A stretch of 25,114 nt of DNA. It comes from an uncultured Gammaproteobacteria bacterium. GTDB lineage: Bacteria > Patescibacteriota > Patescibacteriia > UBA2591 > PGYQ01. The notes beneath the pieces are model-generated. The model did no database searches, was not told where the DNA came from, and saw only the letters and a program-made list of their open reading frames with translations. Below, piece by piece: positions 3,034-21,123 of the stretch (position 1 is its first letter; each line of letters opens with the position of its first letter). Made by a program: the position numbers and the translations under genes. The stretch covers positions 866-25,979 of the forward strand of contig CAYHOD010000001.1 in the NCBI GenBank assembly GCA_964358215.1. The letters are read 5' to 3'.

Positions 3034-3083
3034 AAAATGTAAATATCTCTGCCTACGGCAGATCTGCCGAAGGCAGAAAAAAT
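3034..3083 (+). repeat. CTGCC double-hairpin REP-like element (inverted relative to 18961 and 7800)
   Basis: aaaatgtaaatatctctgcctacggcagatctgccgaaggcagaaaaaat is nearly the reverse complement of 18961-19010. Confidence 0.9.
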
Positions 3084-3154
3084 CAAAATGGCAATGTAAA
3101 ATTCAAAATAAATTTAAATAAAAATCCAAAATCCCAAATAAATAAAAGTACCTT

Positions 3155-3250
3155 GTAACTCGTAATTAGTAATTAAATTAATAATTTGCCTTTGGCAAAT
3201 TATAGTTACGAGTTACGGATTACGGATTACTCTTAGTTAATTGTCATTTT
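3155..3250. repeat. Composite palindromic element, copy 1 (ATAATTTGCC-ttt-GGCAAATTAT core with inverted GTAAC/GTTAC heptamer arms)
   Basis: 3168-3250 vs 7715-7797 match at 81/83 nt; diverged copy at 6309-6410. Confidence 0.9.
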
Positions 3251-3280
3251 ACATTTTTCACTTTACGTTTTACGCTTTTA

Positions 3281-7674: not shown

Positions 7675-7701
7675 ATTTTTCAAAGAAAAATTGCCTATCT
7701 G

Positions 7702-7797
7702 GTAACTTGTAATCAGTAATTAAATTAATAATTTGCCTTTGGCAAATTATAGTTACTAGTTACGGATTACGGATTACTTTTAGTTAATTGTCATTTT
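7702..7797. repeat. Composite palindromic element, copy 2 (contains the dus stop)
   Basis: 81/83 identical to 3168-3250. Confidence 0.9.
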
Positions 7798-8812
7798 CCA
7801 TTTTTCTGCCTTCGGCAGATCCCTGCCTGCCGAAGGCATGGTGCCGTAGGCAGAGATTTTTGCATTTTGATTTTTTAATTATTTTTATTGCTTCATCTGT
7901 GCTTTTCGTTTTCATAAGTTCTGCTCTAATGGCTTTTGCATCAGAAAATCCATTTACATAAGCTTTAAAATATTTTTTTAAAACAACAAAATTTTTTGTC
8001 TTTGAAAAATATTTATTAAATAAAATAATGTGTTTTTTTAAAGCCATTAATTTTTCTTTGGGTGAAATTAATTTATTGTCTTTTTTAGAATCAAATATCC
8101 AGGGATTGCCAATAGCTGCCCGACCAATCATTATTCCGTGCGCGCCTGTTTGTTTAATTTTTAATTTAGCCTCTTCAAGATTAGTTATATCGCCATTGCC
8201 AATAATTAAAGTTTTGCTTCCCTGAGCAATTTTTACAGCCTGCTTAATTGTTTCCCAATGAGCTGGCGAAGAAAATAATTCTTTTTTCGTTCTGGCGTGA
8301 ATAGCGATTGCCGCCGGAGTTTCAGTTAAAAGTTCGCGCAACCAGGTTGTTAAAATATTTTTTTCATAACCAATTCTAGTTTTTATTGAAACCGGCATTT
8401 TATCAGCGCCTTGTTTTGTCGCTCGAATAATTTCTTTTGCTAATTTAAAATTTTTCATTAAAGCCGCTCCAGCTCCTTGTTTTTCTATTTGTTTATCCGG
8501 ACATCCCATGTTAATGTCAATGCCATCAAAACCAAGCGATTTAATCAATTTTGCGGCTTTAAAAAAATTATCCGGATTAGCTCCAAAAACTTGAGCAACT
8601 ATTGGCTTTTCATTTTTTTTAAATTTTAAATAGGATAATAATTTTTCTTTACCTTGAGAACAAAGACCGTCAACTGAAACAAATTCAGTATAAAAAACAT
8701 CTGGTCGACCATATTTGACAAACATTTGTCGAAAAACAATATCAGTTATGTCGTGCATTGGAGCTAAAACAAAAAAAGGAATCTTTAATTTTCGCCAAAA
8801 TCCTTGAGACAT
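7784..8812 (-). CDS. dus: tRNA-dihydrouridine synthase (Dus family)
   Basis: LAPM, YTEFVS, INMGCP (catalytic Cys), VSIKTRIG, HART, GNGDI, GIMIGRAAIGNPW. Confidence 0.95.
   Translation of the reverse strand: MSQGFWRKLKIPFFVLAPMHDITDIVFRQMFVKYGRPDVFYTEFVSVDGLCSQGKEKLLSYLKFKKNEKPIVAQVFGANPDNFFKAAKLIKSLGFDGIDINMGCPDKQIEKQGAGAALMKNFKLAKEIIRATKQGADKMPVSIKTRIGYEKNILTTWLRELLTETPAAIAIHARTKKELFSSPAHWETIKQAVKIAQGSKTLIIGNGDITNLEEAKLKIKQTGAHGIMIGRAAIGNPWIFDSKKDNKLISPKEKLMALKKHIILFNKYFSKTKNFVVLKKYFKAYVNGFSDAKAIRAELMKTKSTDEAIKIIKKSKCKNLCLRHHAFGRQGSAEGRKMENDN
7800..7875 (-). repeat. CTGCC hairpin element with a 20-nt insertion, translated as the Dus C-terminus
   Basis: Equals 18961-19016 plus an inserted cctgcctgccgaaggcatgg. 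Confidence 0.9.
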
Positions 8813-8859
8813 AAAAACGCATTATAATATAATAACGAAAAATTTTAAAAAATAAAAAT

Positions 8860-8894
8860 TTAATATTATGGGAGTTCAACTCCCATAATATTAA
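8860..8894. repeat. REP palindrome, distal copy (17-bp perfect arms)
   Basis: ttaatattatgggagtt-c-aactcccataatattaa; contains the malic enzyme stop. Confidence 0.95.
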
Positions 8895-10171
8895 TAAATT
8901 AATAATTTTGCAATTTTTCTGCTTTCGGCAGATCTCCCGAAGGGAGACAATTTTTCTGCCTTCGGTAGATCTCCCGAAGGGAGACAATTTTTCTGCCTTC
9001 GGTAGATCTCCCGAAGGGAGACAATTTGCAATTTAATATTTCTTGCGATTACTTTTGGCACATTTTTATCTAAAACTCTTGGAAGTATTTTATTTGTATT
9101 TAATTCACTTTTTTTTAAATAATTTGCCAATGTTTCAGCAACAGTAATTTTTATTTCATTTGTGATTATTCTAATTCTATTGTCCAGTATGCCTCTAAAG
9201 AAACCCGGAAAAACCAAAGCGTTATTAATTTGATTTGGAAAGTCGCTTCTTCCAGTGGCTATAATATAAGCGCCTGCTTTTTTGGCTAACTTAGGCATAA
9301 TTTCTGGAATTGGATTAGCCATGGCGAAAATAATTGGTTTGTTTGACATTAATTTAATAAATTCTGGTTTTAATATATTTGGAGCGCTAACTCCAATAAA
9401 AACATCCGCTTTTTCTAAAGATTTTCCTAAATCGCCTTGAATATTTTCTGGGTTAGTTATTAATAATATTTTTCTTTTTATTTCATTTAAATCAGTTCTA
9501 TTTTTAGAAATAATTCCTTTAGAATCAACTAAAATAATATTTTTAATTCCGTATTGATAAAGCAATTTAGCTATCGCAATACCCGCGGCTCCTGCGCCGC
9601 AAATAACCATTTTAATATTTTCTTTTTGTTTTTTAACTAATTTTAAACTGTTAATTAGCGCTGCCAAAACTACAATTGCTGTTCCGTGCTGATCATCGTG
9701 AAAAACCGGAATATCTAATTCTTTTATTAATTTTTCTTCAATTTCAAAACACCGCGGAGACGAAATATCTTCTAAATTTATTCCGCCAAAACCAGGCGAA
9801 ATATTTTTTATTGTTTTAATAATTTCTTCCACGTCTTGAGTTGCGAGAACAATCGGATAGGCGTCAACATTGCCTAATTCTTTAAACAATAAAGCTTTGC
9901 CTTCCATAACTGGCAATGCGCCATAAGGTCCAATATTGCCTAATCCTAACACAGCTGAACCATCTGAAATAATTGCGACTGCGTTTGACTTAATTGAATA
10001 ATCATATGCCGCAATATTATTTTGAGCCAAAAGTAAAGATACAGCGGCAACACCCGGAGTATACGCAACGCTTAAATCGTGTTTTGTTTTTAATTTTCCA
10101 AATTTATTTTTAATTTCAATCTTGCCTTTAAATTTTAAATGTCGTTTTAATGATTCTTTGTTATAATCCAT
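8891..10171 (-). CDS. maeA: NAD(P)-dependent malic enzyme, short form, with a repeat-derived C-terminal tail
   Basis: AYTPGVA, SDGSAVLGLGNIG, VMEGKA, GGINLEDI, FHDDQHGTA, GAGAAG, ANPIPE, ATGRSDFPNQINN. Start at ATG 10171 (MDYNK). Confidence 0.93.
   Translation of the reverse strand: MDYNKESLKRHLKFKGKIEIKNKFGKLKTKHDLSVAYTPGVAAVSLLLAQNNIAAYDYSIKSNAVAIISDGSAVLGLGNIGPYGALPVMEGKALLFKELGNVDAYPIVLATQDVEEIIKTIKNISPGFGGINLEDISSPRCFEIEEKLIKELDIPVFHDDQHGTAIVVLAALINSLKLVKKQKENIKMVICGAGAAGIAIAKLLYQYGIKNIILVDSKGIISKNRTDLNEIKRKILLITNPENIQGDLGKSLEKADVFIGVSAPNILKPEFIKLMSNKPIIFAMANPIPEIMPKLAKKAGAYIIATGRSDFPNQINNALVFPGFFRGILDNRIRIITNEIKITVAETLANYLKKSELNTNKILPRVLDKNVPKVIARNIKLQIVSLREIYRRQKNCLPSGDLPKAEKLSPFGRSAESRKIAKLLIY
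8911..9021. repeat. Three tandem 37-bp double-hairpin units with no spacers
   Basis: Units start at 8911, 8948 and 8985: caatttttctgc(c/t)ttcgg(t/c)agatctcccgaagggaga. Confidence 0.95.
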
Positions 10172-10213
10172 AAAAAACATTTTAACATTTTAACATTTTA
10201 ACATGATAACAAT
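10172..10213 (-). promoter_or_regulatory. Octamer array (TGTTAAAA)n ending 7 nt before the malic enzyme ATG
   Basis: Minus strand reads tgttatcatgttaaaatgttaaaatgttaaaatgttttttATG. Confidence 0.55.
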
Positions 10214-10313
10214 TATACAAAATAAGTGTGCATGTATTTCATCTTTTGCGACAATGAAATTTTTAATCAAAAATAAAACCACAACTCAAATTCCATATCA
10301 CATATTCTTATTT

Positions 10314-10342
10314 TCCTAAAAGCTAAAAAGCTACGAGCTAAG
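10314..10342. repeat. AGCTACA element containing the aminopeptidase stop
   Basis: ttcctaaaagctaaaaagctacgagctaa, 27/29 identical to 4257-4285. Confidence 0.85.
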
Positions 10343-11758
10343 AAAAGTCTTATATCCTAAATAAGCGCAATAAATATCGGCTTTAGAAGCAATTTCTAAT
10401 GGCGCGTGTATATTGAATAAAGGTACGCCGGCGTCAACAACATCAATATTGCGATTAGCTAAATATTTAGCGATAGTTCCTCCGCCACCCTGATCAACCT
10501 TGCCAATTCCGCCAGAAAATTGACAAACAATATTTTTGTCTTTTTTGAAAATCATTCTTAATTTTTGCAAAAATTCAGCTGACGCTTCAGATGTGGAATA
10601 TTTACCGCCAGAACCAGTGTGTTTTTCTATTGCCAATCCAAATCCCATTCTGCAAGCGTTTCGCAAATCATAAACATCTTTATAATCTGGATCAACTGCT
10701 GTTGTTACATCTGCTGAAATTGCTTGACTAATGCCGTATGAATGATAAATTGCGTTTAAATCATTTTTATTTTGATTTAATTTTAAAATATCCAACATAA
10801 AACTTTCTAAAAATAATGACTGAATGCCTGTGTTGCCTTCTGATCCGATTTCTTCTCTGTCCACTAAGACACAAATTTGAGTTTGTTTAATAATTTTAGC
10901 GTCAAAAAAACTCATTAGCGCTAAATAAGAGCAAACCCTGTCGTCCTGTCCATAAGCCGAGATTAAACTTCTATCAAATCCTAAATCTCTGGCTTTTTCA
11001 CTTGGCACCGCTTGTATTTCCGCGCTAACTAAATCTACTTCTTTAATGCCATATTTATTATAAAGGTATTCTAATATTGCTAATTTAACTTTTTCTTTAA
11101 CTTTTGAATCATTAACTGGCAACGAGCCTAATAATAAATTTAAATCTTCTCCTTTAACTTCGCGAGATTCAATTTTACTGCCAGATCCAGATGGACGATC
11201 AAGCTGCGGCAATAAATCTGTAATCATAAAAATTGGCTCATCGTCTTTTTCTCCAATTTTAATATTTATTTTTTTGCCATTTTCTAAACAAACAATTCCG
11301 TGCAACGCTAAAGCAATGGTTGGCCATTGATATTTTTTAATTCCGCCATAATAATGAGTCTTGGCAAAAGCTAAATTTTCATCTTCATAAAGAGGCGTTG
11401 TTTTAAAATCTAAATGCGGCGAATCAATATGCGCCATAATTATTTTCATTCCCTGATTTAAGCCTTGATTGCCAATTTTAGCTAAAAATAAATTTTTATC
11501 GCGATTAACAGCATAAACTTTATCTCCTGTTTTTAATGATTTCATTTCTTTCATATTTTTAAAGCCTCTCATCTTGGCTAATTTTACACTAATTTCTATT
11601 GTTTCCCTTTCTGTTTTTGCTTCATTTAAAAATTTTTTATAGCCTTCACAAAAATCAAAAGCGTTTTTTTTAATTTTATCGTTCCAAACCTCCCAACAAC
11701 TTTTTTGTTCAAGTTTAAGTTCTTTTTCTAATTTTTGATAATTAATTTTTTTAGACAT
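10331..11758 (-). CDS. M18 family aminopeptidase
   Basis: AHIDSPHLD, HYYGGIKKYQW, AYGQDDRVC, DREEIGS, SADVT, GGGGTI, DAGVPLFNIHAPLE. Confidence 0.92.
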   Translation of the reverse strand: MSKKINYQKLEKELKLEQKSCWEVWNDKIKKNAFDFCEGYKKFLNEAKTERETIEISVKLAKMRGFKNMKEMKSLKTGDKVYAVNRDKNLFLAKIGNQGLNQGMKIIMAHIDSPHLDFKTTPLYEDENLAFAKTHYYGGIKKYQWPTIALALHGIVCLENGKKINIKIGEKDDEPIFMITDLLPQLDRPSGSGSKIESREVKGEDLNLLLGSLPVNDSKVKEKVKLAILEYLYNKYGIKEVDLVSAEIQAVPSEKARDLGFDRSLISAYGQDDRVCSYLALMSFFDAKIIKQTQICVLVDREEIGSEGNTGIQSLFLESFMLDILKLNQNKNDLNAIYHSYGISQAISADVTTAVDPDYKDVYDLRNACRMGFGLAIEKHTGSGGKYSTSEASAEFLQKLRMIFKKDKNIVCQFSGGIGKVDQGGGGTIAKYLANRNIDVVDAGVPLFNIHAPLEIASKADIYCAYLGYKTFLSS

Positions 11759-11800
11759 AAAAATAAATAAAATAGATAAAAATTTTCTAACCGCTCAAAA

Positions 11801-11824
11801 TGTTATAATGTTATAATGTTATTA
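11801..11824 (+). repeat. TGTTATAA octamer array
   Basis: tgttataa tgttataa tgttatta just past the GT2 stop. Confidence 0.85.
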
Positions 11825-11828
11825 TATT

Positions 11829-12863
11829 TTATTCTATCCATTTTCTCATTTCTTTAGCGGTTATTTTTTTGTGGCTCATAATAATTTTTCTTTTTTTTAA
11901 AATTATTGGCAATTGCTTAAAAAATTCAAACAAAGCTTTGGATGTTGAAAATTCAAAAAATAAAAGAAAAATAAATTTTTTAAGTTCATAGAAAAAAATC
12001 CAAGGAAAATGCAAGATAAAATTGCTTAAAAATTCATTTTTAATCAACATTAAAAGATGATTTTTATAAGAAAGATAATTAATTAATTTACTTTTATTTT
12101 TTTTGTTTAAAGCCGCGCTTATATCATTTAAACTTTTTTTTCTTTTTGTTGTTCGATCGTGATATGCCTTTGCTTGCGGTAAAAAAAATATTTTCCAACC
12201 ATAAATTCGTAAACGCAAAGAAAGATCTATGTCTTCTTTGTAGGCTGTAAAATCTTCGTCTAAATATTCTGTCATTTTGTCATTTAATTTAATTCCTATA
12301 TTTTTTAATGCTTGAGCGTTAAATATAGCGCATGCGCCAGTAATGCCAAATATTTCTTTTGTCTGATTGTATTGCTCATTATCCTTTTCTCCTTCTCCTA
12401 TATTAATCGCTCTTCTATTTTTAAACATTTTAATTCCGACTGAATCAATTATATCAGTTTTTTCATTTTTATCAAAATCCCAATAATAAATTTTAGGCAT
12501 TACAGCGGCAATATTTGAATTAGTTTTTAAAAATTTCATTGTTTCTTCTAAAAAATTTTTTTCTAAAATAACATCTTGATTTAATATTAAAATATATTCG
12601 CTGTCTTTAATAACTTCTCGAATTCCTTGATTATATCCTCCGCAAAATCCTAAATTTTTTTTGTTTTCAATTAATTTTAATTTTTTATTTGTTAAATATA
12701 AATTATAATTTGATTTAATAAATTTTATAGTATCGTCGGCTGACGCATTGTCAATAATTAAAATTTTAAAATCTTGAAAACTTTGATCAAAAATAGAATT
12801 TAAACAATGTGAAATATATTTTTTGCCATTTAAAGCGCAAAGAACAATTGAAATTTTAGACAT
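11829..12863 (-). CDS. GT2 family glycosyltransferase
   Basis: IIDNASAD, NLGFCGGYNQG, LNQD, GACAIF, EDIDLSLR. Confidence 0.92.
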   Translation of the reverse strand: MSKISIVLCALNGKKYISHCLNSIFDQSFQDFKILIIDNASADDTIKFIKSNYNLYLTNKKLKLIENKKNLGFCGGYNQGIREVIKDSEYILILNQDVILEKNFLEETMKFLKTNSNIAAVMPKIYYWDFDKNEKTDIIDSVGIKMFKNRRAINIGEGEKDNEQYNQTKEIFGITGACAIFNAQALKNIGIKLNDKMTEYLDEDFTAYKEDIDLSLRLRIYGWKIFFLPQAKAYHDRTTKRKKSLNDISAALNKKNKSKLINYLSYKNHLLMLIKNEFLSNFILHFPWIFFYELKKFIFLLFFEFSTSKALFEFFKQLPIILKKRKIIMSHKKITAKEMRKWIE

Positions 12864-12918
12864 AAAAACATTACATTAAAAAATAAAAAAAGGAAAAATC
12901 AAAAATTAGTTTGTAGCT

Positions 12919-14388
12919 TTATGGCTTTACGGCTTTTTTAAAAATCATTAAACAAAGCAAAATATAAAAAATGCCTGTTGGATAAAATAAAAATGGTCCA
13001 AAAATATGAATAACAAAAAGACAAAATAAGCCAATTAAAATTCCCAAATAAAAATCTTGATTAATTGTTGAATAATAAACTGTTTTAACTCCTTGCCAAA
13101 ATAATATTCCTAAAAACCAAAAATAACTTAAAAAACCAAATAATCCTAGGTCTGTCCAATTCTCTAAATAACCCCAATCAATGTGAGGGGTTTTTATAAT
13201 TTTTTTTGTTGGATAATCATAAGCAACAATTTCAGAACCCATGCCAGAACCAATTATTGGATATTCTTTAATTTTTTTTAAAGCGGCGTCAAGCCGTTCA
13301 AGTCTGGACATGGCGCTGGCTTCTGTTTCTGGAGTAAAAATTGTTTCTATTCTGTCGTTTAAAAACAAAAAATTAGTTTGAATGTTTTTATGATTGCATA
13401 AATAAAAAATCAAAAAACTTTCTAATAAAAAAATTACAATTAAACTTATAGAAAAAATTATTTTTCTTTTTAACGGAATTTTTAAAATTAAACATAAAAA
13501 AATTAAACTAATTACAAATCCTAAAAGAAAATTTCGGGTAAAACTGATTGTTAAAACAACGCTTGATAAAATTCCCAAAAAAATAAGCCAAGGCAATTGA
13601 GAATTTAACCAATAATTTTTTTTTGTTAATTTATAAATATTAAAAAGTAAAATTGAAATTATGATAAGAAAAAAAACTAAAGTTAAAATATCCGACGACA
13701 TAACGACCCTAAAAAAATTATTATTCATTGCGGCTATTTTGCCAATAACATATTCTCTAAACCATTGATAATAAATTCCACCATGAACTGCCGAATGGCT
13801 GGCAAATAAATAAAGCGTTGTTATGGTTAAAGCGCTTGTGGCAATTATTGTTCCGGAAAATATTTGAAATATTTTTTTTATTAATTGTTTATTATTAACA
13901 ATTAAATCAAAAAATGGAAAAATTAATGAGAGATAGCTATAACAAATTAAATCCGCAAAAATAAAATTCCAAGCGTTTCCTCTTATTATTCCTATAATTC
14001 CAGCTAAAGCGATAAAAAATAACGCGAAAGTAAAAGGCTTGAAAAAAAATGATTTTGTAAAATTTTCTATTTGTGATTTTAAAAATTGATAATTTCGTAA
14101 TTTTTGAATGAGCCAAATAAACATAAAAACGGCAAACAAAACAAAACGAATTGATAGACTTTTAAACTCAAAAAGATGTCCGTCAATGCCGGCTAAAAAT
14201 TCAAAAATAAGAAATAAAAGACAATATTCTATTTTCCAAAAACTTAATCCAATTAAAACAATCACCATTAAAAAAAATCCAAAAGTTTCCACATTTGGAT
14301 TTAAAAAGCCAAGGAAAGAAAGGAGATAAATAAAAATACAAGCAAAAAAAGTATAAAGCGTTAATTTTCCAACTGAAATAATGTTCAT
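12919..14388 (-). CDS. O-antigen ligase/polymerase-like (Wzy_C) membrane protein
   Basis: Many TM segments, ISFTRN, SAMSRL, PIIGSGMG and PHIDWGYLE loop motifs; sits among glycosyltransferases. Confidence 0.8.
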   Translation of the reverse strand: MNIISVGKLTLYTFFACIFIYLLSFLGFLNPNVETFGFFLMVIVLIGLSFWKIEYCLLFLIFEFLAGIDGHLFEFKSLSIRFVLFAVFMFIWLIQKLRNYQFLKSQIENFTKSFFFKPFTFALFFIALAGIIGIIRGNAWNFIFADLICYSYLSLIFPFFDLIVNNKQLIKKIFQIFSGTIIATSALTITTLYLFASHSAVHGGIYYQWFREYVIGKIAAMNNNFFRVVMSSDILTLVFFLIIISILLFNIYKLTKKNYWLNSQLPWLIFLGILSSVVLTISFTRNFLLGFVISLIFLCLILKIPLKRKIIFSISLIVIFLLESFLIFYLCNHKNIQTNFLFLNDRIETIFTPETEASAMSRLERLDAALKKIKEYPIIGSGMGSEIVAYDYPTKKIIKTPHIDWGYLENWTDLGLFGFLSYFWFLGILFWQGVKTVYYSTINQDFYLGILIGLFCLFVIHIFGPFLFYPTGIFYILLCLMIFKKAVKP

Positions 14389-14392
14389 AAAA
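14344..14392. repeat. 49-bp direct repeat, left copy (includes the ligase ATG and first codons)
   Basis: 48/49 identical to 15431-15479. Confidence 0.95.
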
Positions 14393-14397
14393 TAGAC

Positions 14398-14465
14398 AGA
14401 AATTTTTAATTACAAAACGCCATTAGAATTTTCAAAAATGCCTGCCAATGTACTCATCTTGTACA
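14398..14465 (+). mobile_element. Possible 3' remnant of an integrase-core (IS481/IS3/IS30-like) transposase and IS end
   Basis: Plus frame reads EIFNYKTPLEFSKMPANVLILY, resembling the YxTPxE C-terminal motif; the segment ends in TACA. Short, with no catalytic core. Confidence 0.35.
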
Positions 14466-14482
14466 ACTGTTAATAACTTCTA

Positions 14483-14511
14483 TTGATTTTATTTGCGGGA
14501 TTTGTTATATT
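14483..14511 (+). promoter_or_regulatory. sigma70-type promoter TTGATT-17-TATATT with TG extension
   Basis: TTGATT 14483-14488, TG 14503-14504, TATATT 14506-14511. Confidence 0.6.
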
Positions 14512-14517
14512 AATAAT

Positions 14518-14589
14518 GTCTTTCAGTTTTTATAAACTGAAAGGGTATTACATCCAAGGGCAATCCTCTTCGCGGAGGGTTGCTTTTTT
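14518..14589 (+). ncRNA. Candidate ~70-nt two-hairpin small RNA
   Basis: Follows the promoter; perfect hairpin ctttcagttt-ttat-aaactgaaag (14520-14543), then a terminator. No ORF. Confidence 0.45.
14556..14589 (+). terminator. Intrinsic terminator
   Basis: aagggcaatcctc-ttcgcg-gagggttgc followed by tttttt; the stem includes G-U pairs. Confidence 0.65.
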
Positions 14590-14672
14590 ATTGTATCGGA
14601 AAGTAAATATTTAAAAAATAAGTAAGTTAGAATTATAAAATAACCGCACCATTATTGAGTTTCACCAGTGCA
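14588..14672. repeat. Dispersed ~82-bp repeat, copy B
   Basis: Homologous to 7589-7674. Confidence 0.88.
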
Positions 14673-14709
14673 GGAATTTTCTTTTAGAACCCGCTCTTGA
14701 TATTCAATT

Positions 14710-14763
14710 CGACTTTGACACTTGCTATCCAAACTTGAATATTAAGTTTGGGTAGCAAAGTCG
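14710..14763. repeat. Long imperfect hairpin 3' of the NYN gene
   Basis: ttgctatccaaactt-gaatatt-aagtttgggtagcaa (14/15 arms); outer cgactttg/caaagtcg. Confidence 0.8.
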
Positions 14764-14800
14764 GGTTTCAAGTTCGAGTTAGAAAATTTTGCTTATCTGG

Positions 14801-15388
14801 TTATTTTTCCGGTCGATGATGCAATTCTCGGCCCCAAACATCTTCTGCAATGCACAAAACATCAGAATAACCATCACCGCCAGTTTTTAATTCTTCTGAA
14901 ATATTATTTTTTGATGAAAAAATATAAACTTTTTTACTCGCTCTTCTTAAATAAGATACTAAAGCTAAAAAATCCGAGTCGCCGCTAAAAAGTACGGCAA
15001 TGTTATATTTATTTATATTATGCAATGCGTCAATTGTTATTTCAACATCCATATTGCCTTTTTCTTCAATGCTTTCACCATTTTCTGTAATAATAAAAAT
15101 CCGTTTTAATTCCTTTTTTCTTACAATAAAACCAAGTCCTTTTTTGAGAAAAGTATAAAATTTATGCCGTCCATTCAGACTATAAACTCTTGTGCCTTCA
15201 GCGGGATAAGCAGTGTAATAAAAAATTTTTATAATAAAACTATGAAAATTTTCTTTAATAAATTTTTTTAGTTTTTCGTAATCAAAAAATTTTCCTTTTG
15301 CTTTTTGCGCTTCCCAAAGATTGGATGCATCAATAAAAACATAAACAATATTTTTATTTGCTATTTTTTGATTCAATTTATTATTCAT
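14801..15388 (-). CDS. NYN-domain (LabA/DUF88, PIN-like) putative RNase
   Basis: VFIDASNL, EKGNMDVEITID, LFSGDSDF acidic catalytic motifs, SEELK. Confidence 0.9.
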   Translation of the reverse strand: MNNKLNQKIANKNIVYVFIDASNLWEAQKAKGKFFDYEKLKKFIKENFHSFIIKIFYYTAYPAEGTRVYSLNGRHKFYTFLKKGLGFIVRKKELKRIFIITENGESIEEKGNMDVEITIDALHNINKYNIAVLFSGDSDFLALVSYLRRASKKVYIFSSKNNISEELKTGGDGYSDVLCIAEDVWGRELHHRPEK

Positions 15389-15403
15389 TTTATTTTTATT
15401 TAT

Positions 15404-15475
15404 TTAAATTATATCCTTATTTTTAAAACTAAAAAAAGTGTAAAGCGTTAATTTTCCAACTGAAATAATGTTCAT
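15404..15475 (-). pseudogene. Orphaned 5' fragment of the ligase gene (MNIISVGKLTLYTFF plus 8 unrelated residues)
   Basis: First 15 codons match the ligase N-terminus, then the sequence diverges and stops at 15404. Confidence 0.75.
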
Positions 15476-15479
15476 AAAA
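15431..15479. repeat. 49-bp direct repeat, right copy
   Basis: aaaaaaagt(g/a)taaagcgttaattttccaactgaaataatgttcataaaa. Confidence 0.95.
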
Positions 15480-15496
15480 ACATAAATCAAAAATTA

Positions 15497-16375
15497 TTAT
15501 TTTAAATTTTCTTTCTTCCCAAACTTGCCATTGCGATAATCTTGATAGCCTTGTATCATTGCTTTTATTTTTAATATTTTTTGATCTTCCCCAATTAAAA
15601 TTCTTATTAAATCTTTTAAAAATCCGATGCTTTCTTTTTTACAAAAATTAGGAAAATCTTTTTTATAATGATTAATAAGATAAAATCTATTTCGAGTTGC
15701 ATAATATCGTCTTATTGGAGGGTAATTTGTAGAAAAAAACCAAAAACATTTTTTCAAATTTCCAAGGTTATGTTCTAAAATTGCTCTATTTGCTTGTATA
15801 ACTAAAAAACCATTTTTATTAAGACGCAAACAATATTCATGATCAACGGAATCTATAAAAAATTTATCTATAAATGGCCCAATTTTTTGATAAACGTTTA
15901 AATTTAATAAATTTCCAGACATCATCGTGGTAAATACTTTTGATCCTATTTCATTTCTTTTGATATTTTTTTCTGAAAATTTATTAAATTTATTTTTATG
16001 AACGGGCGAAATAATTCCAATATTTTGTGAATCATAAAAATTTAAACATTCTATTAACATAGGAATTATTTTTGGAACGGCTTTACTGTCTGAATCAATT
16101 GTAAATAACCAATCATATCCATTTTCAATGGCTTTTTGCGCGCCAACATTAAGAGCGTTTGCAATCCCCTGATTTCCGTGATTATCAATATAATAAACTT
16201 TTTCTTTGGTTTTTAAAGCATTAATAATTTCTATTTCTTTTTTATCAGAATTATCAACAACAAATAAAATATCCAAATCTTCAATATAAGAATCAATGTT
16301 ATTAATAACATTTGAAGTTGGATTATATAATGCGACAACACCGGCGATTTTTATTTTATCTTTTTTCATAATCAT
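15497..16375 (-). CDS. GT2 glycosyltransferase (rhamnosyltransferase-like)
   Basis: VVALYNP, VVDNSD, NQGIANALNVG, TIDSDS, SGNLL, FFIDSVDHEYCLR, RRYYATRN. Confidence 0.9.
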   Translation of the reverse strand: MIMKKDKIKIAGVVALYNPTSNVINNIDSYIEDLDILFVVDNSDKKEIEIINALKTKEKVYYIDNHGNQGIANALNVGAQKAIENGYDWLFTIDSDSKAVPKIIPMLIECLNFYDSQNIGIISPVHKNKFNKFSEKNIKRNEIGSKVFTTMMSGNLLNLNVYQKIGPFIDKFFIDSVDHEYCLRLNKNGFLVIQANRAILEHNLGNLKKCFWFFSTNYPPIRRYYATRNRFYLINHYKKDFPNFCKKESIGFLKDLIRILIGEDQKILKIKAMIQGYQDYRNGKFGKKENLK

Positions 16376-17553
16376 ATAATTAATTTATCCAACATTTCCT
16401 TTACTTTCTTTTTCCAATCATGTTTTTTTACTTCTTCTATTCGTTTTATTTTTAAATTTTCATCTTTTTCTTCTAAACATTTTTTTAAAGCATTATTAAA
16501 TTCTTCTGCTGTGTTTACTATTTTAATGAAATTGGAAAATCTTTCTGCTCCACCGGTATTTGTCGCAATAATTGGTTTCCCTAAAGCTAAATATTCATAT
16601 ATTTTCATTGAATCTCCGCATTTTGTGTTTAAATTTACTTTATAAAAAGCAAAACAAACATCAAATTGATTAATATACGACGGAACTTGTTTAAAATGTT
16701 TTGATCCTAATAAATATACATTATTAAAACGAGATAATTTTTCTATCCCAAATTTCACAAATTTGTCTTGCCAAATTGGTCCAATAAAAACAAAATTTAC
16801 ATTTTGATTTTTTTTAATCACCTTTGAAATTAAATCAAAATCCAAACGATTAGTCATTACTCCGATGCAGCCAATTATTGGATGCGCAATTTTTTTAATG
16901 TCATCTGGACATATTAAATTTTTTTGAAATCTATTTAAATCAATACCCTGAGAAACACAATAAACATTTTGTCTATTTTGAAAAAATAAATTTATAAGCT
17001 CTTGAGAAACTGTAAAAATAATATTCGTTTTTTCTTTAATTAATTTATAATTTTTTTCAAGTTTTTGTTTTTGATTTTTATAAGCCGGAAATTCCGTCCA
17101 ATTATCAATGGCGTCAAAACAAGAAATACTCTCGCCTAATTTTCCAAAATATTCGCAAAACATTGGGTTACACGACCAAAGAATTATGTTTTTAAATTCT
17201 AATTTTTTAAGCAATTTATTTATTTTTTTTATTAATATTTTTTCTCCAAAAACAGAATCAATTGTGGAATAAACAAAAAATCCTTTTGATACATTTAAAA
17301 ATTCGGAAGTTTGAATTTCACGACAAATACTAAAAAAATCTCGATGAATAATTTTTCCTCGAGATGTTAAAATTTGATTTTTAATATAACTTTTAATTCC
17401 TTGCTTTGTTGTAAAAGGCAATAAATCAATATAAAAAATTTTTCCAATTCTTTCGTCTTCTAATAAATTTTTTAAAATATAAGCGCTGCGATTAAATGTT
17501 TCTTTTTCAAACCATCTTGAAAAATTATTCATTCCAAACATTATAATATCCAT
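16372..17553 (-). CDS. GT-B fold (GT4/TuaH-like) glycosyltransferase
   Basis: FDAIDNW, IFTVSQEL, QGIDLNRF, FIGP, SMKIYEYLALGKPIIAT; 4-nt overlap with the downstream gene. Confidence 0.88.
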   Translation of the reverse strand: MDIIMFGMNNFSRWFEKETFNRSAYILKNLLEDERIGKIFYIDLLPFTTKQGIKSYIKNQILTSRGKIIHRDFFSICREIQTSEFLNVSKGFFVYSTIDSVFGEKILIKKINKLLKKLEFKNIILWSCNPMFCEYFGKLGESISCFDAIDNWTEFPAYKNQKQKLEKNYKLIKEKTNIIFTVSQELINLFFQNRQNVYCVSQGIDLNRFQKNLICPDDIKKIAHPIIGCIGVMTNRLDFDLISKVIKKNQNVNFVFIGPIWQDKFVKFGIEKLSRFNNVYLLGSKHFKQVPSYINQFDVCFAFYKVNLNTKCGDSMKIYEYLALGKPIIATNTGGAERFSNFIKIVNTAEEFNNALKKCLEEKDENLKIKRIEEVKKHDWKKKVKEMLDKLII

Positions 17554-17601
17554 AAAACTAAATTAATAAAAAATCAATATTAAGATTCTCGCTTCGTTTA
17601 A

Positions 17602-17668
17602 AATAACAGAATGTTATTCTGTTACAATGTTATAATGTTAAAATGTTATAATGTTATAATGTTTTTTC
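17602..17668 (+). repeat. TGTTAnnn octamer array overlapping the serS stop
   Basis: Six to seven units from 17612; serS TAA at 17646-17648 lies inside. Confidence 0.9.
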
Positions 17669-18905
17669 CATTCATATAAGGCTGTAAGACTTCTGGAATT
17701 TTTATTGATCCATCTTTTTGTTGATAATTTTCTATAATTGCAATAATGATTCTACCAATAGCAAAAGCTGTTCCGTTTAAAGTATGAACAAAATTTAATT
17801 TGCCCTTTTTATTTCGATAACGAATATTTAATCGTCTGGCCTGAAAATCCGTGCAATTGCTTGTTGAAGTTATTTCTCTAAATTCATTTTGTCCTGGCAA
17901 CCAAGCCTCTAAATCAAATTTTTTAGCCGCTGAATCCCCTAAATCTCCGGTGCACATTTTTATCACCCGATAAGGTATTTTTAAAAGTTGGACTAATTTT
18001 TCTTCCATTGAAAGTAAAAATTGATGTTCTTTTTCTGAATCTTCTGGCTTGCAAAAACAAAACATTTCTAATTTATCAAATTGATGAACCCGCAAAATTC
18101 CTTTTGTGTCTTTGCCATACGATCCAGCTTCTCTGCGAAAACAAGATGAAAATCCTAAGTACCTTTTTGGTAAATCTTTTTCTTCAAAAATTTCATCACA
18201 ATGCATTGGGCCAATTGATTGCTCAGAGGTGCCGACTAAATATAATTCATCTTTTGGCAAATAATAAATTTCATCTTCTCCGCGAATTAAATATCCCATT
18301 GCCGCCATTGGTTGTCTTTTTATCATAACTGGTGGAATGATTGGAATAAAATTTTCTTTAATTAAATTAAAAAAAGTAAATTGAATTAAGGCAAATTCTA
18401 ATAGAACCGCTTCATTTTTTAAATAACCAAATCTACTGCCAGAAATTTTGGCCGCTCTTTTAGTGTCAATTAAATCTAATTTTTCGGCTAATTCAATATA
18501 GCTTTTTGATTCAAAATCAAATTTAGAAATTTTACATTCGTGTCTTAAAATTTCATTATCTTCTTCATTACGCCCTATTTTGACATCTGACAAAGGAAGA
18601 TTTGGAATTAAATACATTAATTTATTAAATTCTTTTTCTATTTCTTCTAATTCTTTTTCTAATTTCAATATTTCTTCTTTAATATTTTTCCCTTTTTCTA
18701 TTAATTCATCTTTTTTTGAAAAATCCATTTTGATTTTATCAGCAATCTCATTTTTTATTTTTCTTAAATCATCCACTTTTTGAATCAAATCTTTTCTTTT
18801 TTTATCCAATTCTAAAAGTCCGTCAATATCAACATTAACTCGTTTATTTTCACAAGCGCTTTTAATCAAATCTGAATTTTCACGAATAAATTTTATATCC
18901 AACAT
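17646..18905 (-). CDS. serS: Seryl-tRNA synthetase
   Basis: MLDIKFIREN, coiled-coil arm, LVGTSEQ, FRREAGSYGKDTKGILRVHQFDKLE, EITSTSNCTDFQARRL, HTLNGTA. Start at ATG 18905. Confidence 0.97.
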   Translation of the reverse strand: MLDIKFIRENSDLIKSACENKRVNVDIDGLLELDKKRKDLIQKVDDLRKIKNEIADKIKMDFSKKDELIEKGKNIKEEILKLEKELEEIEKEFNKLMYLIPNLPLSDVKIGRNEEDNEILRHECKISKFDFESKSYIELAEKLDLIDTKRAAKISGSRFGYLKNEAVLLEFALIQFTFFNLIKENFIPIIPPVMIKRQPMAAMGYLIRGEDEIYYLPKDELYLVGTSEQSIGPMHCDEIFEEKDLPKRYLGFSSCFRREAGSYGKDTKGILRVHQFDKLEMFCFCKPEDSEKEHQFLLSMEEKLVQLLKIPYRVIKMCTGDLGDSAAKKFDLEAWLPGQNEFREITSTSNCTDFQARRLNIRYRNKKGKLNFVHTLNGTAFAIGRIIIAIIENYQQKDGSIKIPEVLQPYMNGKNIITL

Positions 18906-18956
18906 AGAAAAACATTTTAACAAAATAACATTTTAACATTAAAACATTTTGTTATT
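18906..18956 (-). promoter_or_regulatory. Octamer array ending in TGTTAAAAT 8 nt before the serS ATG; inverted relative to the 17602 array
   Basis: Minus strand reads aataacaaaatgttttaatgttaaaatgttattttgttaaaatgtttttctATG. Confidence 0.55.
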
Positions 18957-20219
18957 TTACATTTTTCTGCCTTCGGCAGATCTGCCGTAGGCAGAGATTT
19001 TTGCATTTTGATTTTTCAACGCTTCTAACGCTGGCAATTTTTTATCAGCAAGAAATTCTAACATTGCTCCGCCAGCTACACAAACATGACTAATTTTTTT
19101 ATTTAAATTAAATTTATTAATCGCTTCCTCTGTATCTCCGCCGCCAATTATGCTATAAGCCTTAGAATTTGCAATTGCTTGAGCTATTTTTTTTGTTCCT
19201 TGGCTAAATTTTTCTTTTTCAAATAATCCCATCGGGCCATTCCAAATAATTGTTTTTGCTTTTTGAATATATTGAGAAAATAAATCAATTGTTTGACGTC
19301 CTATGTCTAAAATCGAAATTGGCAAATTATAAGAATTTAAAAATGCAATATCTATTTCTTTTGATTGTTTTTTTAAACCAATAGTTTTTTCAATGACTCC
19401 GTCAATTGGCAAAATAATTTTTTCTCCCACAAATGGTAATAATTCAACTAACATTTTTTTTATCGTATCATTTGTTTGGCTATTTAAAAAACTGCCTGGC
19501 AATTCTCCTACTTTATATCCTAATTCTTTTAAAAAAATCAATCCGATTACGCCGCCTATTAAAATTAAATCCGCTTGTTTAAGAAAATTTTTAATTACAT
19601 CTATTTTAGAATCCATTTTTACTCCTCCGATAATAATAACTAAAGGCTTTTTGGGATTTGTTTTAATTTTAGTTAAAATTTTTATTTCTTTTTCAAAATT
19701 TAATCCCATTGCGCTTGGCAAAAATTTTGTAATTCCAACCGTAGAGGCATAATCCCTATGACTTTGAGCAAAAGCGTCATTAATAAAAATTTCGCCTAAA
19801 TCAGCAAGTTTTTTAGCAAATTTTAAATCATTTTTTTCTTCTTCTGGATAAAAACGAGTATTTTCCAAAAGAATAATCTCATTTGATTTCATATCTTTTA
19901 TTGTGTTTTCAACCTTCTTTCCGATACAATCTTCTAAATAACTTACTTTTTCTTTTTTAAATATTTGCTTTAATTTTTTTGCAACCGGCTTTAAACGTAA
20001 ATCTCCCACTATTTTACCATTGGGTCTTCCTAAATAAGAAACTAAAATGATTTTACAATTTTGTTCTAAAAGATATTCAATTGTAGGAATTGAAATTTTT
20101 ATTCTGCTATCGTCAACGACTGTCCATTCATTTCCATTTTTTTTCAACGGTACATCATAGGCCACTCTCAAAATAACTTTTTTATTTTTTAAATCTATAT
20201 CTTTGATGGTTTTGTACAT
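18957..20219 (-). CDS. pgk: Phosphoglycerate kinase (divergent substrate-binding motif)
   Basis: LGRP, LLENTRFYPEE, INDAF..HR, IIWNGPMGLFE, IGGGDT, GGAMLEFL. Confidence 0.88.
   Translation of the reverse strand: MYKTIKDIDLKNKKVILRVAYDVPLKKNGNEWTVVDDSRIKISIPTIEYLLEQNCKIILVSYLGRPNGKIVGDLRLKPVAKKLKQIFKKEKVSYLEDCIGKKVENTIKDMKSNEIILLENTRFYPEEEKNDLKFAKKLADLGEIFINDAFAQSHRDYASTVGITKFLPSAMGLNFEKEIKILTKIKTNPKKPLVIIIGGVKMDSKIDVIKNFLKQADLILIGGVIGLIFLKELGYKVGELPGSFLNSQTNDTIKKMLVELLPFVGEKIILPIDGVIEKTIGLKKQSKEIDIAFLNSYNLPISILDIGRQTIDLFSQYIQKAKTIIWNGPMGLFEKEKFSQGTKKIAQAIANSKAYSIIGGGDTEEAINKFNLNKKISHVCVAGGAMLEFLADKKLPALEALKNQNAKISAYGRSAEGRKM
18961..19016 (-). repeat. CTGCC double-hairpin element translated as the PGK C-terminus
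   Basis: atttttctgccttcggcagatctgccgtaggcagagatttttgcattttgattttt. Confidence 0.9.
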
Positions 20220-20338: not shown

Positions 20339-20377
20339 GAATAATATTATGGGAGTTGAACTCCCATAATATTATTC
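20339..20377. repeat. REP palindrome downstream of the RAYT (19-bp perfect arms; contains its stop)
   Basis: gaataatattatgggagtt-g-aactcccataatattattc. Confidence 0.95.
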
Positions 20378-21091
20378 TAAAATTATTTTTTTGATTTTCT
20401 CTATATTTATATTTCTTCCATCTATTCCACTTTTTTCACGAAGCCATTTTTTAGTTTGCTGATAATATTCTTTTTCTCCTCCAAAAAAATCTAAAATAAA
20501 ATCTCTTGAAGTTAGCGATGGAAAATTTTTTTTGCCAATATAATCTAAATAAGAACTCCATCGATAATTTTCTAAAAATTCTATTTGTGTTTTCCAATCT
20601 ATGGGAGTTGAACTCCCATAGATTAAATCTATTGGGTTAGTATGGATATAAAATGGAAGAATGGAAAAATAAATTTCTTCATTAACAAAAATTGCTTTAA
20701 ATCTGCCTTGAAATAGTCCGCCAACCCTCTCATATTTTTTATTAAAATAATTTGTATACCCAGTTCCTAATTTTTGCATAAATTTTACAATTCCATTTTC
20801 TTTTTTTTGTTTTAAGAGTAAGTGGAAATGATTTGGCATAAGAGTAAAAGCCAAAATTTCAACTAATAATTTTCTAGGCTTTTTTTGTTTTTTTATACGT
20901 TCTAATTCTGTCTTTTTAAATTTATTATTAAAATAATAAGCGACATTATAAACAAAATCCTCATTATTAAATTCAAAAAGATCATGAATAAATCTAAGAT
21001 AATCTTTGTCGTCAAGAAATGTTTTTCTTTTTTCTACCCCTCTATTAAAAATATGATAAATTTCATTTTCTACAAATTGTGGTTTTTGCAT
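20372..21091 (-). mobile_element. REP-associated tyrosine transposase (RAYT, Y1 HUH superfamily) CDS
   Basis: YHIFNRG, LMPNHFHLLL (HUH), YFNKKY, LFQGRF, YIHTNP, YRWSSY; flanked by palindromes. Start taken at ATG 21091 (MQKP). Confidence 0.9.
20596..20624. repeat. REP palindrome inside the RAYT CDS (14-bp perfect arms)
   Basis: aatctatgggagtt-g-aactcccatagatt; translated as LIYGSSTPID. Confidence 0.95.
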
Positions 21092-21102
21092 ATTTTTAAA
21101 TC

Positions 21103-21123
21103 TATGGGAGTTCAACTCCCATA
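21103..21123. repeat. REP palindrome upstream of the RAYT (10-bp core arms, hybrid flanks)
   Basis: tatgggagtt-c-aactcccata. Confidence 0.93.

Follow-up and report, generated by a model that had tools for sequence, protein, structure and literature searches.

Shared C-terminal tails of three unrelated enzymes are encoded by a dispersed 30-nucleotide palindrome that also borders a GIY-YIG/tRNA-Cys cassette in Patescibacteria

In this report, we mainly focus on a stretch of 25,114 nucleotides (nt) from a genome of the Patescibacteria, or Candidate Phyla Radiation (CPR), in which three unrelated enzyme genes end in nearly the same short peptide, and on the hairpin element that encodes it. The stretch, hereafter the window, is analysed at its whole length (contig CAYHOD010000001.1, positions 866 to 25,979). 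All three genes, like every other gene of the window, lie on the minus strand: the tRNA-dihydrouridine synthase gene dus at 7784-8812 (Pfam PF01207, 2.7e-64; Dus domain at residues 16-310 of 342), a malic-enzyme gene at 8891-10180 (PF03949 and PF00390, with the domains ending at residue 371 of 429), and the phosphoglycerate kinase gene pgk at 18957-20219 (PF00162, 5.9e-127; domain end at residue 393 of 420). Translated from that strand, the open reading frame (ORF) of pgk ends in ...NAKISAYGRSAEGRKM (final residues ...SAEGRKM), that of dus in ...LCLRHHAFGRQGSAEGRKMENDN (...SAEGRKMENDN), and that of the malic enzyme in ...VSLREIYRRQKNCLPSGDLPKAEKLSPFGRSAESRKIAKLLIY, or, written at other lengths, ...SAESRKIAKLLIY and ...SPFGRSAESRKIAKLLIY. 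The degenerate 18-mer behind the peptide, TCNGCNGARRGNMGNAAR, which encodes S-A-E-[G/S]-R-K, occurs four times in the window (7802-7819, 8915-8932 and 18963-18980 on the minus strand, and 3063-3080 on the plus strand), compared with no occurrence in 100 shuffles. Mis-called ORF ends were considered as a source of the tails and rejected, as the reading frames are continuous and the NCBI/ENA gene calls contain exactly the same 420-residue PGK and 342-residue Dus products.

The original prediction, which placed a single CTGCC hairpin element just before the stop codons of pgk, dus and the malic-enzyme gene, with a fourth copy that is intergenic and inverted, holds for all four locations. One repeated element does add the three tails, but it takes a different form in each gene. 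The 3′ end of pgk carries a 30-nt palindrome (18966..18995), read as (I)SAYGRSAEGR before K-M-stop; the 3′ end of dus carries a nested form of 50 nt (7805..7854), read as LCLRHHAFGRQGSAEGR before KMENDN-stop; and in the malic-enzyme gene three 37-nt units lie in tandem at the 3′ end (8918..9021), each consisting of the 30-nt palindrome and the heptamer AAAATTG, which pass through all three frames one after another. The intergenic palindrome of 30 nt (3048..3077, plus strand, with its core at 3049-3076) lies between ATP-synthase genes and is inverted relative to them, and its core is identical to that of the pgk copy. The exit frame is common to the three genes, as predicted, but the entry frame of dus is unlike that of pgk, and the two exits coincide because the dus copy is 20 nt longer. 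Likewise, the peptide is shared but is never the true C-terminus, since the last residues differ (KM, NDN and LIY, and CKF in a fourth protein, a HAD hydrolase encoded elsewhere in the genome).

The 30-nt unit follows the pattern T-CTSCC-TWC-GGSAG-AT-CTSCC-GWA-GGSAG-A, a palindrome composed of two smaller palindromes around an AGATCT centre, and the 50-nt form is the same 30-mer with an extra 20-nt hairpin nested centrally, this module being found in either orientation. ViennaRNA folds the 30-mer into a single imperfect hairpin whose stem of 7 and 5 bp is interrupted by an A·A mismatch, with calculated energies of -13.1 kcal/mol as DNA and -20.8 kcal/mol as RNA for the pgk copy (z about -6 to -7) and of -19.3 and -29.6 kcal/mol, respectively, for the 50-nt form in dus; besides this imperfect hairpin of 12 bp, the 30-mer can also form two triloop hairpins of 5-6 bp. 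The short and long consensus forms are free of stops in five to six of the six frames, compared with 2.3% of random genomic 30-mers that are fully open, and the lone stop, where there is one, is the GTA loop read as TAG; the element is nearly stop-free because it is GC-rich within a genome of 29% GC. Being a multiple of three, the 30-nt unit causes no frame shift, whereas the 50-nt form shifts the frame. The flanks are A-rich heptamers (AAAAWKY), and the 7 nt on either side are identical in 16 of 56 copies, as against 3.1 expected under random pairing, a surplus that may reflect array context or flanks specific to sub-families and not duplication. At window positions 7700-7780 and 3130-3260, and downstream of position 11046 on another contig (G000:C18), long AT-rich inverted repeats adjoin the GC hairpin elements; their arms are heptamer arrays (GTAACTC, GTAATCC and similar) and their centre is a TTTGCC-WWW-GGCAAA hairpin.

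Comparison with five genomes of the same genus (G001-G005) indicates that every comparable insert is absent from the orthologues, which end 2-9 residues past the last conserved block. PGK orthologues in the four genomes with a readable 3′ end terminate in ...LPALEVLKK(S), ...ALRQKNSV or ...LKIKK, without an extension; Dus in G003 and G004 terminates in ...EAIKIINQCQKILN (...IKIINQCQKILN); and the only malic-enzyme orthologue found in the genus (G001) ends in ...INNFK and lacks the array. As the proteins of the window are longer than these orthologues, the extension in each corresponds to the element plus the following sequence up to the next stop. The suggestion that the tail is neutral fits a genus in which all three enzymes otherwise do without it.

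The distribution of the element was examined throughout the genome to which the window belongs (G000; 834 kb in 139 contigs, 28.8% GC, 98.9% complete), whose relatives are metagenome-assembled genomes of Patescibacteria, 'Candidatus Kuenenbacteria' among them. A search for CT[G/C]CC-NNN-GG[G/C]AG hairpins yields 106 islands, two of which are chance look-alikes; a recognisable 30-mer is present in 58 of the remaining ~104. Approximately 87% of these islands lie outside genes, and the 13 in real genes contrast with the 82.5% of the genome that is coding by crude gene calls (p~1e-54). Six of the 13 are at 3′ ends (pgk, dus, the malic-enzyme gene and the genes of the HAD hydrolase, a HepT toxin and a peptide-chain release factor), and seven are mid-gene (TopA, a methyltransferase, LeuRS, TsaD, Fmt, RadA and a MiaB-like radical-SAM enzyme); Pfam domains of the host genes span the internal inserts. 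The 50-nt form is found only in spacers and tails, and what look like a few additional overlaps with ORFs are in fact 5′ leaders (that of rplP, for instance) or short ORFs of doubtful standing.

It had been proposed from the three window genes that the element targets stop-proximal sites, in a fixed orientation and a fixed final frame, and that it might act as a portable tag. Copies in the last 15 codons do account for 6 of the 13 intragenic ones, where 4.8% is expected (p=1.6e-5); with most islands outside genes and seven copies mid-gene, however, targeting of stop-proximal sites does not hold, and the surplus at 3′ ends is the pattern that purifying selection alone would leave. Genome-wide, there is essentially no frame bias and no orientation bias beyond that of the flanks. 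Among intragenic copies in the same orientation as their gene, the exit frame is SxxGR in five (pgk, dus, malic enzyme, HAD hydrolase and RadA), LPxxD in three (methyltransferase, MiaB-like enzyme and release factor) and LCLRQ in two (TopA and Fmt), a distribution compatible with chance (chi-square p=0.50), and the release-factor tail, ...SLPTADPL, is in a frame other than that of SAEGRK. Restricted to same-orientation tails, the frames stand at 4:1:0, which is not significant (~0.14). Orientation, which is definable solely from the A-rich flanks, agrees with that of the host gene in ten cases and is inverted in three (LeuRS, TsaD and HepT), and the corresponding ratio in co-directional spacers is 31:19; on coding strands, AAAAAT outnumbers its complement 2.06-fold, and the pooled ratio of 41:22 fits 2:1 (p=0.79). 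The frame, orientation and position tests thus leave the tag hypothesis without support, and the neutral tail stands as the probable reading.

Empty sites in same-genus orthologues are available for 10 of the 13 intragenic copies, and the gaps match the inserts in size: 20 residues (60 nt) in TsaD and in LeuRS, 15 residues (45 nt) in Fmt and 10 residues (30 nt) in RadA. The MiaB-like insert, the TopA loop and the release-factor tail are likewise absent from same-genus orthologues, and for the gene with the HAD-hydrolase tail no orthologue was found in the genus. Placement of the inserts in loops is deduced from gaps relative to solved homologues: the Fmt insert is a gap against E. coli Fmt (1fmt) at a turn of the C-terminal domain, and the TsaD insert stands in place of a six-residue linker of Thermotoga TsaD (6n9a). 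At the TsaD and MiaB sites, sister species contain in-frame heptamer arrays (TTTTCAA x4 and GTCAAAT x4), and from these alignments the 30-mer seems to have landed within pre-existing heptamer arrays. Furthermore, the sister species G002 has different inserts in the same LeuRS loop (L034), in the same RadA linker (L043) and in the Dus tail (L012); that in LeuRS is a double hairpin (CTCCGAC..GTCGGAG TCCCGAC..GTCGGGA) with TACAAGC heptamers as flanks, and that in RadA is GC-rich and hairpin-like. The recurrence of inserts marks these positions as permissive sites, as hot spots, or as both. Tandem 37-nt units, amplified locally, are present in the malic-enzyme, LeuRS and TsaD genes. Between near-identical variants from the same population (L079 vs G000:C39; L086 and L113 vs G000:C19), indels of at least 6 nt consist only of changes in array copy number, affecting heptamer (AGCTTGT) and 16-mer (GTAACATAATAACATT) arrays, some of which are intragenic, as in TsaD, which also encodes LQATSYKLQA repeats; the Fmt insert is present in a strain variant as well.

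Outside this genome, the palindrome is rare among assembled relatives and widespread among metagenome contigs. A strict 28-mer pattern matches 34 times in the genome of the window; one same-genus genome has a single match, as does a phylum-wide sample of 400 genomes taken as a whole, and 39 other relatives (four genomes of the same genus and 35 of the same order) have none. The single copy in G001 was considered as an orthologue of the intergenic window copy and rejected, as it lies upstream of a nusB-like gene. Metagenome contigs contain the identical 28-mer in at least 118 stretches; the 80 loci that were fetched comprise 19 from the same population (Hainich groundwater, 92-100% identity), one from a related species and ~60 unrelated ones with a GC content of 31-52%. 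Proteins on two of the unrelated contigs have their nearest named relatives in Uhrbacteria, Harrisonbacteria, Azambacteria and Paceibacterota. In the unrelated contigs, the 28-mer is often mid-gene (RecG, ValRS, MetRS, IF-2, GatA, MnmA, TsaD and a Mur ligase) and is read in all three frames, as SPYGRSPEGR, LPTGDLPKGE or SLREISRRE; in MnmA, it occupies one shared position at the N-terminus in two unrelated contigs, L118 and L141 (MLKEL-SPFGRSP[E/V]GR-KK...). A viral contig collection has no match to the 28-mer, and a literature search returned no paper on such elements, or on the tRNA cassette described below, in CPR bacteria.

A further copy leads to a possible home of the element. On the minus strand of another contig (G000:C9:13039-13560; L190:1300-1800), a tRNA-Cys gene is split within its anticodon by a cassette whose order is a decoy 5′ half of tRNA-Cys (33 nt), a 30-mer, an 18-nt spacer, a 96-residue GIY-YIG ORF (L190:1438-1725; PF01541, 1.1e-15), an intact tRNA-Cys(GCA), into which the 3′ end of the ORF runs, and a second 30-mer. 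The nuclease also matches a group I intron endonuclease model in NCBIfam, at a sub-threshold level only. The same arrangement recurs in several unrelated contigs, where the 28-mer lies 11-20 nt upstream of a GIY-YIG ORF of 81-84 residues, with an intact tRNA-Cys(GCA) after the ORF and a tRNA 5′ half, cut inside the anticodon, before it. At least eight other lineages have this layout (L123, L128, L139, L146 and L098 at tRNA-Cys, L114 at tRNA-Ser, and L126 and L075). Overall, 14 of the ~60 unrelated loci contain a small GIY-YIG ORF, and in 10 of these the 28-mer is at most 150 nt away, where ~0.2 would be expected with one such gene per genome. In another genome, G268, the sole 28-mer sits at the junction of tRNA half, 28-mer and GIY-YIG gene. 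Within the genus, the genome of the window combines an intact nuclease with ~100 copies, G001 a decayed remnant with one copy, and G003-G005 have neither. One locus recovered from three metagenome samples (L123, L138 and L143) has a decoy tRNA-Cys half with an extra hairpin insert in its D-loop and, in addition, a second tRNA-Cys-like fragment downstream, in which a solo 30-mer is positioned exactly at the anticodon (GGTCTG^CAAAACC); this placement suggests that the anticodon loop itself may be targeted by the hairpin. A different GIY-YIG gene (MERQYFIYIMTNQ...) in the sister species (L193, on G002:C124) has CGTCATTGCGAGGAGC...GCGACGAAGCAATC repeats on both sides, with the CGTC tag typical of SRM/NTS-type repeats.

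On this evidence, we consider it likely that the three tails arise incidentally from a dispersed palindromic mini-element, either selfish or neutral, whose home copy lies at the edge of the tRNA-Cys GIY-YIG cassette. Copies reside in the A-rich heptamer tracts, which abound in spacers, near the ends of genes and in the coding sequence of variable surface loops. Placed a few codons before a stop, a copy would be read through until an AT-rich stop follows; within a permissive loop, it would add 10 or 20 residues; and the remaining intragenic copies would presumably be purged by selection. The home copy appears to be the hairpin bordering the cassette that splits tRNA-Cys in the anticodon; by analogy with the Ssn nucleases and their SRM repeats, the cassette nuclease may recognise this hairpin on single-stranded DNA, and such activity could underlie the multiplication of solo copies. 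A more far-reaching version, which we regard as tentative, holds that a minimal GIY-YIG nuclease has the 30-nt palindrome as its cognate site, that the cassette homes into the tRNA-Cys anticodon and supplies a replacement tRNA, and that the nuclease spreads solo copies within and between CPR genomes. If so, solo 30-mers would be the smallest known non-autonomous mobile elements, a near-stop-free unit of 30 nt would generally drive the insertion of in-frame loops and tails into CPR proteins, and there would be a testable mechanism for the long-unexplained spread of protein-coding palindromes of the RPE and CGTC types.

Several observations weigh against the proposed origin of the tails. Neither transposition nor cleavage of the element has been observed. 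No sign of recent mobility is seen in ~100 kb of contigs from the same population, at 99-100% identity, which show no presence/absence polymorphism of the hairpin; and since the orthologues are ~20% diverged and the surrounding sequence is of low complexity, the element boundaries are approximate and any target-site duplication would be obscured. The relation between nuclease and copy number within the genus is drawn from six genomes only. The best match of the nuclease in the PDB is the UPF0213 protein BH0048 (1zg2, 6.8e-6), not a characterised Ssn; the published SRM search motif is without a match in the genome; and the genome has five Y1 transposase genes of the IS200/RAYT type that might act in trans. 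Finally, all four same-orientation tails with a full element exit in the SxxGRK frame (four of the five same-orientation tails, p~0.14), and weak frame-dependent selection may therefore act on tails.

The presence of Y1 transposase genes bears directly on the possibility that the hairpins are classical REPs, or REPIN-type repeats, moved in trans by one of these enzymes, with the GIY-YIG linkage being incidental. The element is REP-sized, an imperfect palindrome of 30 nt with an internal mismatch, many of its copies contain GTAG/CTAC, and intragenic and 3′-end REPs are documented (PMC3733652). Five PF01797 genes are present, including a RAYT-like gene in the window (20372-21115, or 20349-21122 with its repeats; 7.8e-10) that has REPs of its own: ATGGGAGTT[G/C]AACTCCCAT palindromes flank it, a third copy lies in frame within the gene (YGSSTPI), and a fourth, at 8868-8886, lies just downstream of the malic-enzyme stop, forming a REP family separate from the 30-mer. 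The other four IS200/RAYT-type genes (G000 contigs C18:11385-11864, C20:3032-3667, C49:2700-3005 and C31:7661-8176) each have their own distinct GC-rich palindrome, and such a set of five repeat-nuclease pairs is unusually rich for a genome of 834 kb. However, none of the five is flanked by the CTGCC/CTCCC element, the palindrome being different at each (GGGAGTT-S-AACTCCC, GGAAGT..ACTTCC, GGAGGTCGGACCTCC, GGGGACWGTCCCC and CTCCGC..GCGGAG), and the RAYT was rejected as the partner of the element on this ground. Moreover, the element begins with TCT and ends with AGA; GTAG is internal, not terminal, being confined to the loop-stem junction of GTA-loop copies, and GAA-loop copies lack it. The 28-mer of other lineages accompanies a GIY-YIG ORF and not a Y1 gene. 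Transposition by a Y1 enzyme is thus an unlikely source of the copies.

Quite unlikely, too, is an origin without mobility, in which template switching or slippage within heptamer arrays, or gene conversion only, would have produced the elements repeatedly and locally, their likeness being due to convergent constraints. The embedding of the elements in heptamer arrays whose copy number differs between strains, the local amplification evident in the tandem 37-nt units of the malic-enzyme, LeuRS and TsaD genes, and the lack of presence/absence polymorphism in the population sample all agree with such a process; yet slippage of different heptamers could not produce 28-mers that agree to the letter, both among dozens of unlinked loci of this genome and with CPR contigs of unrelated origin (31-52% GC), and the gaps of 30 and 60 nt seen in orthologues are clean and resemble the insertion of a preformed unit. 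It is highly unlikely that the SAEGRK peptide or an mRNA 3′ hairpin was selected at gene ends as a portable tag for the control of degradation, localisation or mRNA stability, for although the four 3′-end copies of pgk, dus, malic enzyme and HAD hydrolase share an orientation and the S-x-x-G/W-R-K frame, intragenic copies are enriched near stops, the RNA form of the hairpin is stable, and 3′-end REPs influence mRNA decay (PMC12306157, PMC3733652), the true C-terminal residues differ, the release-factor tail is in another frame and the HepT tail on the opposite strand, most copies lie outside genes, orthologues function without the tail, and what is conserved, within this genome (frames 5:3:2) and in unrelated CPR lineages that translate all three frames, is the DNA palindrome and not the peptide.

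The shared tail itself is real, and a functional reading of it is not supported; the spread of the element by way of a nuclease is a proposal. For annotation, identical end peptides on unrelated CPR enzymes should be taken as repeat read-through and do not point to a common signal or domain. The data also indicate that minimal genomes tolerate a 30-nt palindrome in essential genes such as those for LeuRS, TsaD, RadA, Fmt and TopA, and, as the same loops have been struck independently in sister species, the element maps permissive sites in a natural way and contributes to variation in protein length. What matters most is the link between the hairpin and the GIY-YIG cassette at tRNA-Cys, which is found both in the genome of the window and at the sole copy of another genome. 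The nuclease in this cassette is a concrete candidate, on the basis of gene neighbourhood, for an enzyme acting on protein-coding palindromes, whose means of spread has been a puzzle since 2000.

Several known systems share part of these features. In-frame palindromes in protein genes are the hallmark of the Rickettsia palindromic elements (RPE), as outlined in a later account (Ogata et al. 2000, Science 290:347, via PMC10969869). Like the 30-mer, RPEs are there described as dispersed, open-frame palindromes that lie in frame in unrelated housekeeping genes of a reduced, AT-rich genome, at sites compatible with the protein fold, and that are absent from orthologues; they differ in length (~100-150 bp), in being confined to Rickettsia and in having no known partner gene. 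The present element, in contrast, is 30 nt long (50 nt when nested), resides in heptamer tracts, is identical to the letter across distant CPR lineages and is associated with a GIY-YIG cassette at tRNA-Cys. Its length of 30-50 nt and its Patescibacteria host make it an analogue of RPEs and not a member of the family.

GTAG/CGTC REPs are palindromes of 20-40 nt that are mostly intergenic and close to the 3′ ends of ORFs, and two Xanthomonas species have different REPs at the same recB site (Di Nocera et al. 2013, PMC3733652). The 30-mer resembles them as a palindrome of 30 nt with one internal mismatch, in ~104 islands that are ~87% extragenic, and the different inserts at the same sites of RadA and LeuRS in two species of the genus recall the recB case. 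Unlike these REPs, it has no terminal GTAG/CGTC tag and flanks no RAYT gene, so that there is no REPtron; the REP survey did not cover CPR bacteria.

Closer in architecture are the Ssn proteins, GIY-YIG single-strand nucleases associated with SRM/NTS hairpin repeats (Chenal et al. 2025, PMC11893778). In both systems, a small, single-domain GIY-YIG gene lies between copies of a hairpin of ~30 nt, with ~100 or more dispersed copies in the same genome, and this repeat-gene-repeat architecture resembles an insertion sequence. The cassette has the Ssn-type layout, namely a 96-residue GIY-YIG gene with a 30-mer 18 nt upstream and a second 30-mer beyond tRNA-Cys. The SRM consensus HGTCWYN(0-2)YYVSBRHN(0-5)WNVSBRGN(0-2)RNCYNB has no match on either strand of the whole genome, and membership of the 30-mer in that motif family was rejected on this ground. 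In contrast to Ssn/SRM, the cassette sits within a tRNA gene that it splits and brings its own replacement tRNA, and a role in natural transformation is not implied.

SegB of phage T4 is a free-standing GIY-YIG homing endonuclease encoded in a tRNA cluster. It resembles the cassette as a small GIY-YIG gene among or inside tRNA genes with selfish behaviour, whereas Seg proteins contain additional DNA-binding domains, come from phages and have no dispersed hairpin family alongside them. The SDRs of Nostoc and its relatives, which Elhai and colleagues are said to have described in 2008, are reportedly hairpin-forming dispersed repeats of 21-27 nt, often set in tandem heptamer repeats and sometimes nested in themselves. 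Heptamer flanks, heptamer arrays and a nested 50-nt form are what the 30-mer has in common with SDRs, a likeness of behaviour only and not of sequence. SDRs are said to be cyanobacterial, with other sequences and without an associated nuclease gene, and residence in frame in essential genes is reportedly not their hallmark. The element is thus similar to RPEs, REPs or SRM repeats, but it is only 30 nt long, is common to several CPR lineages and is tied to a GIY-YIG cassette that splits a tRNA gene.

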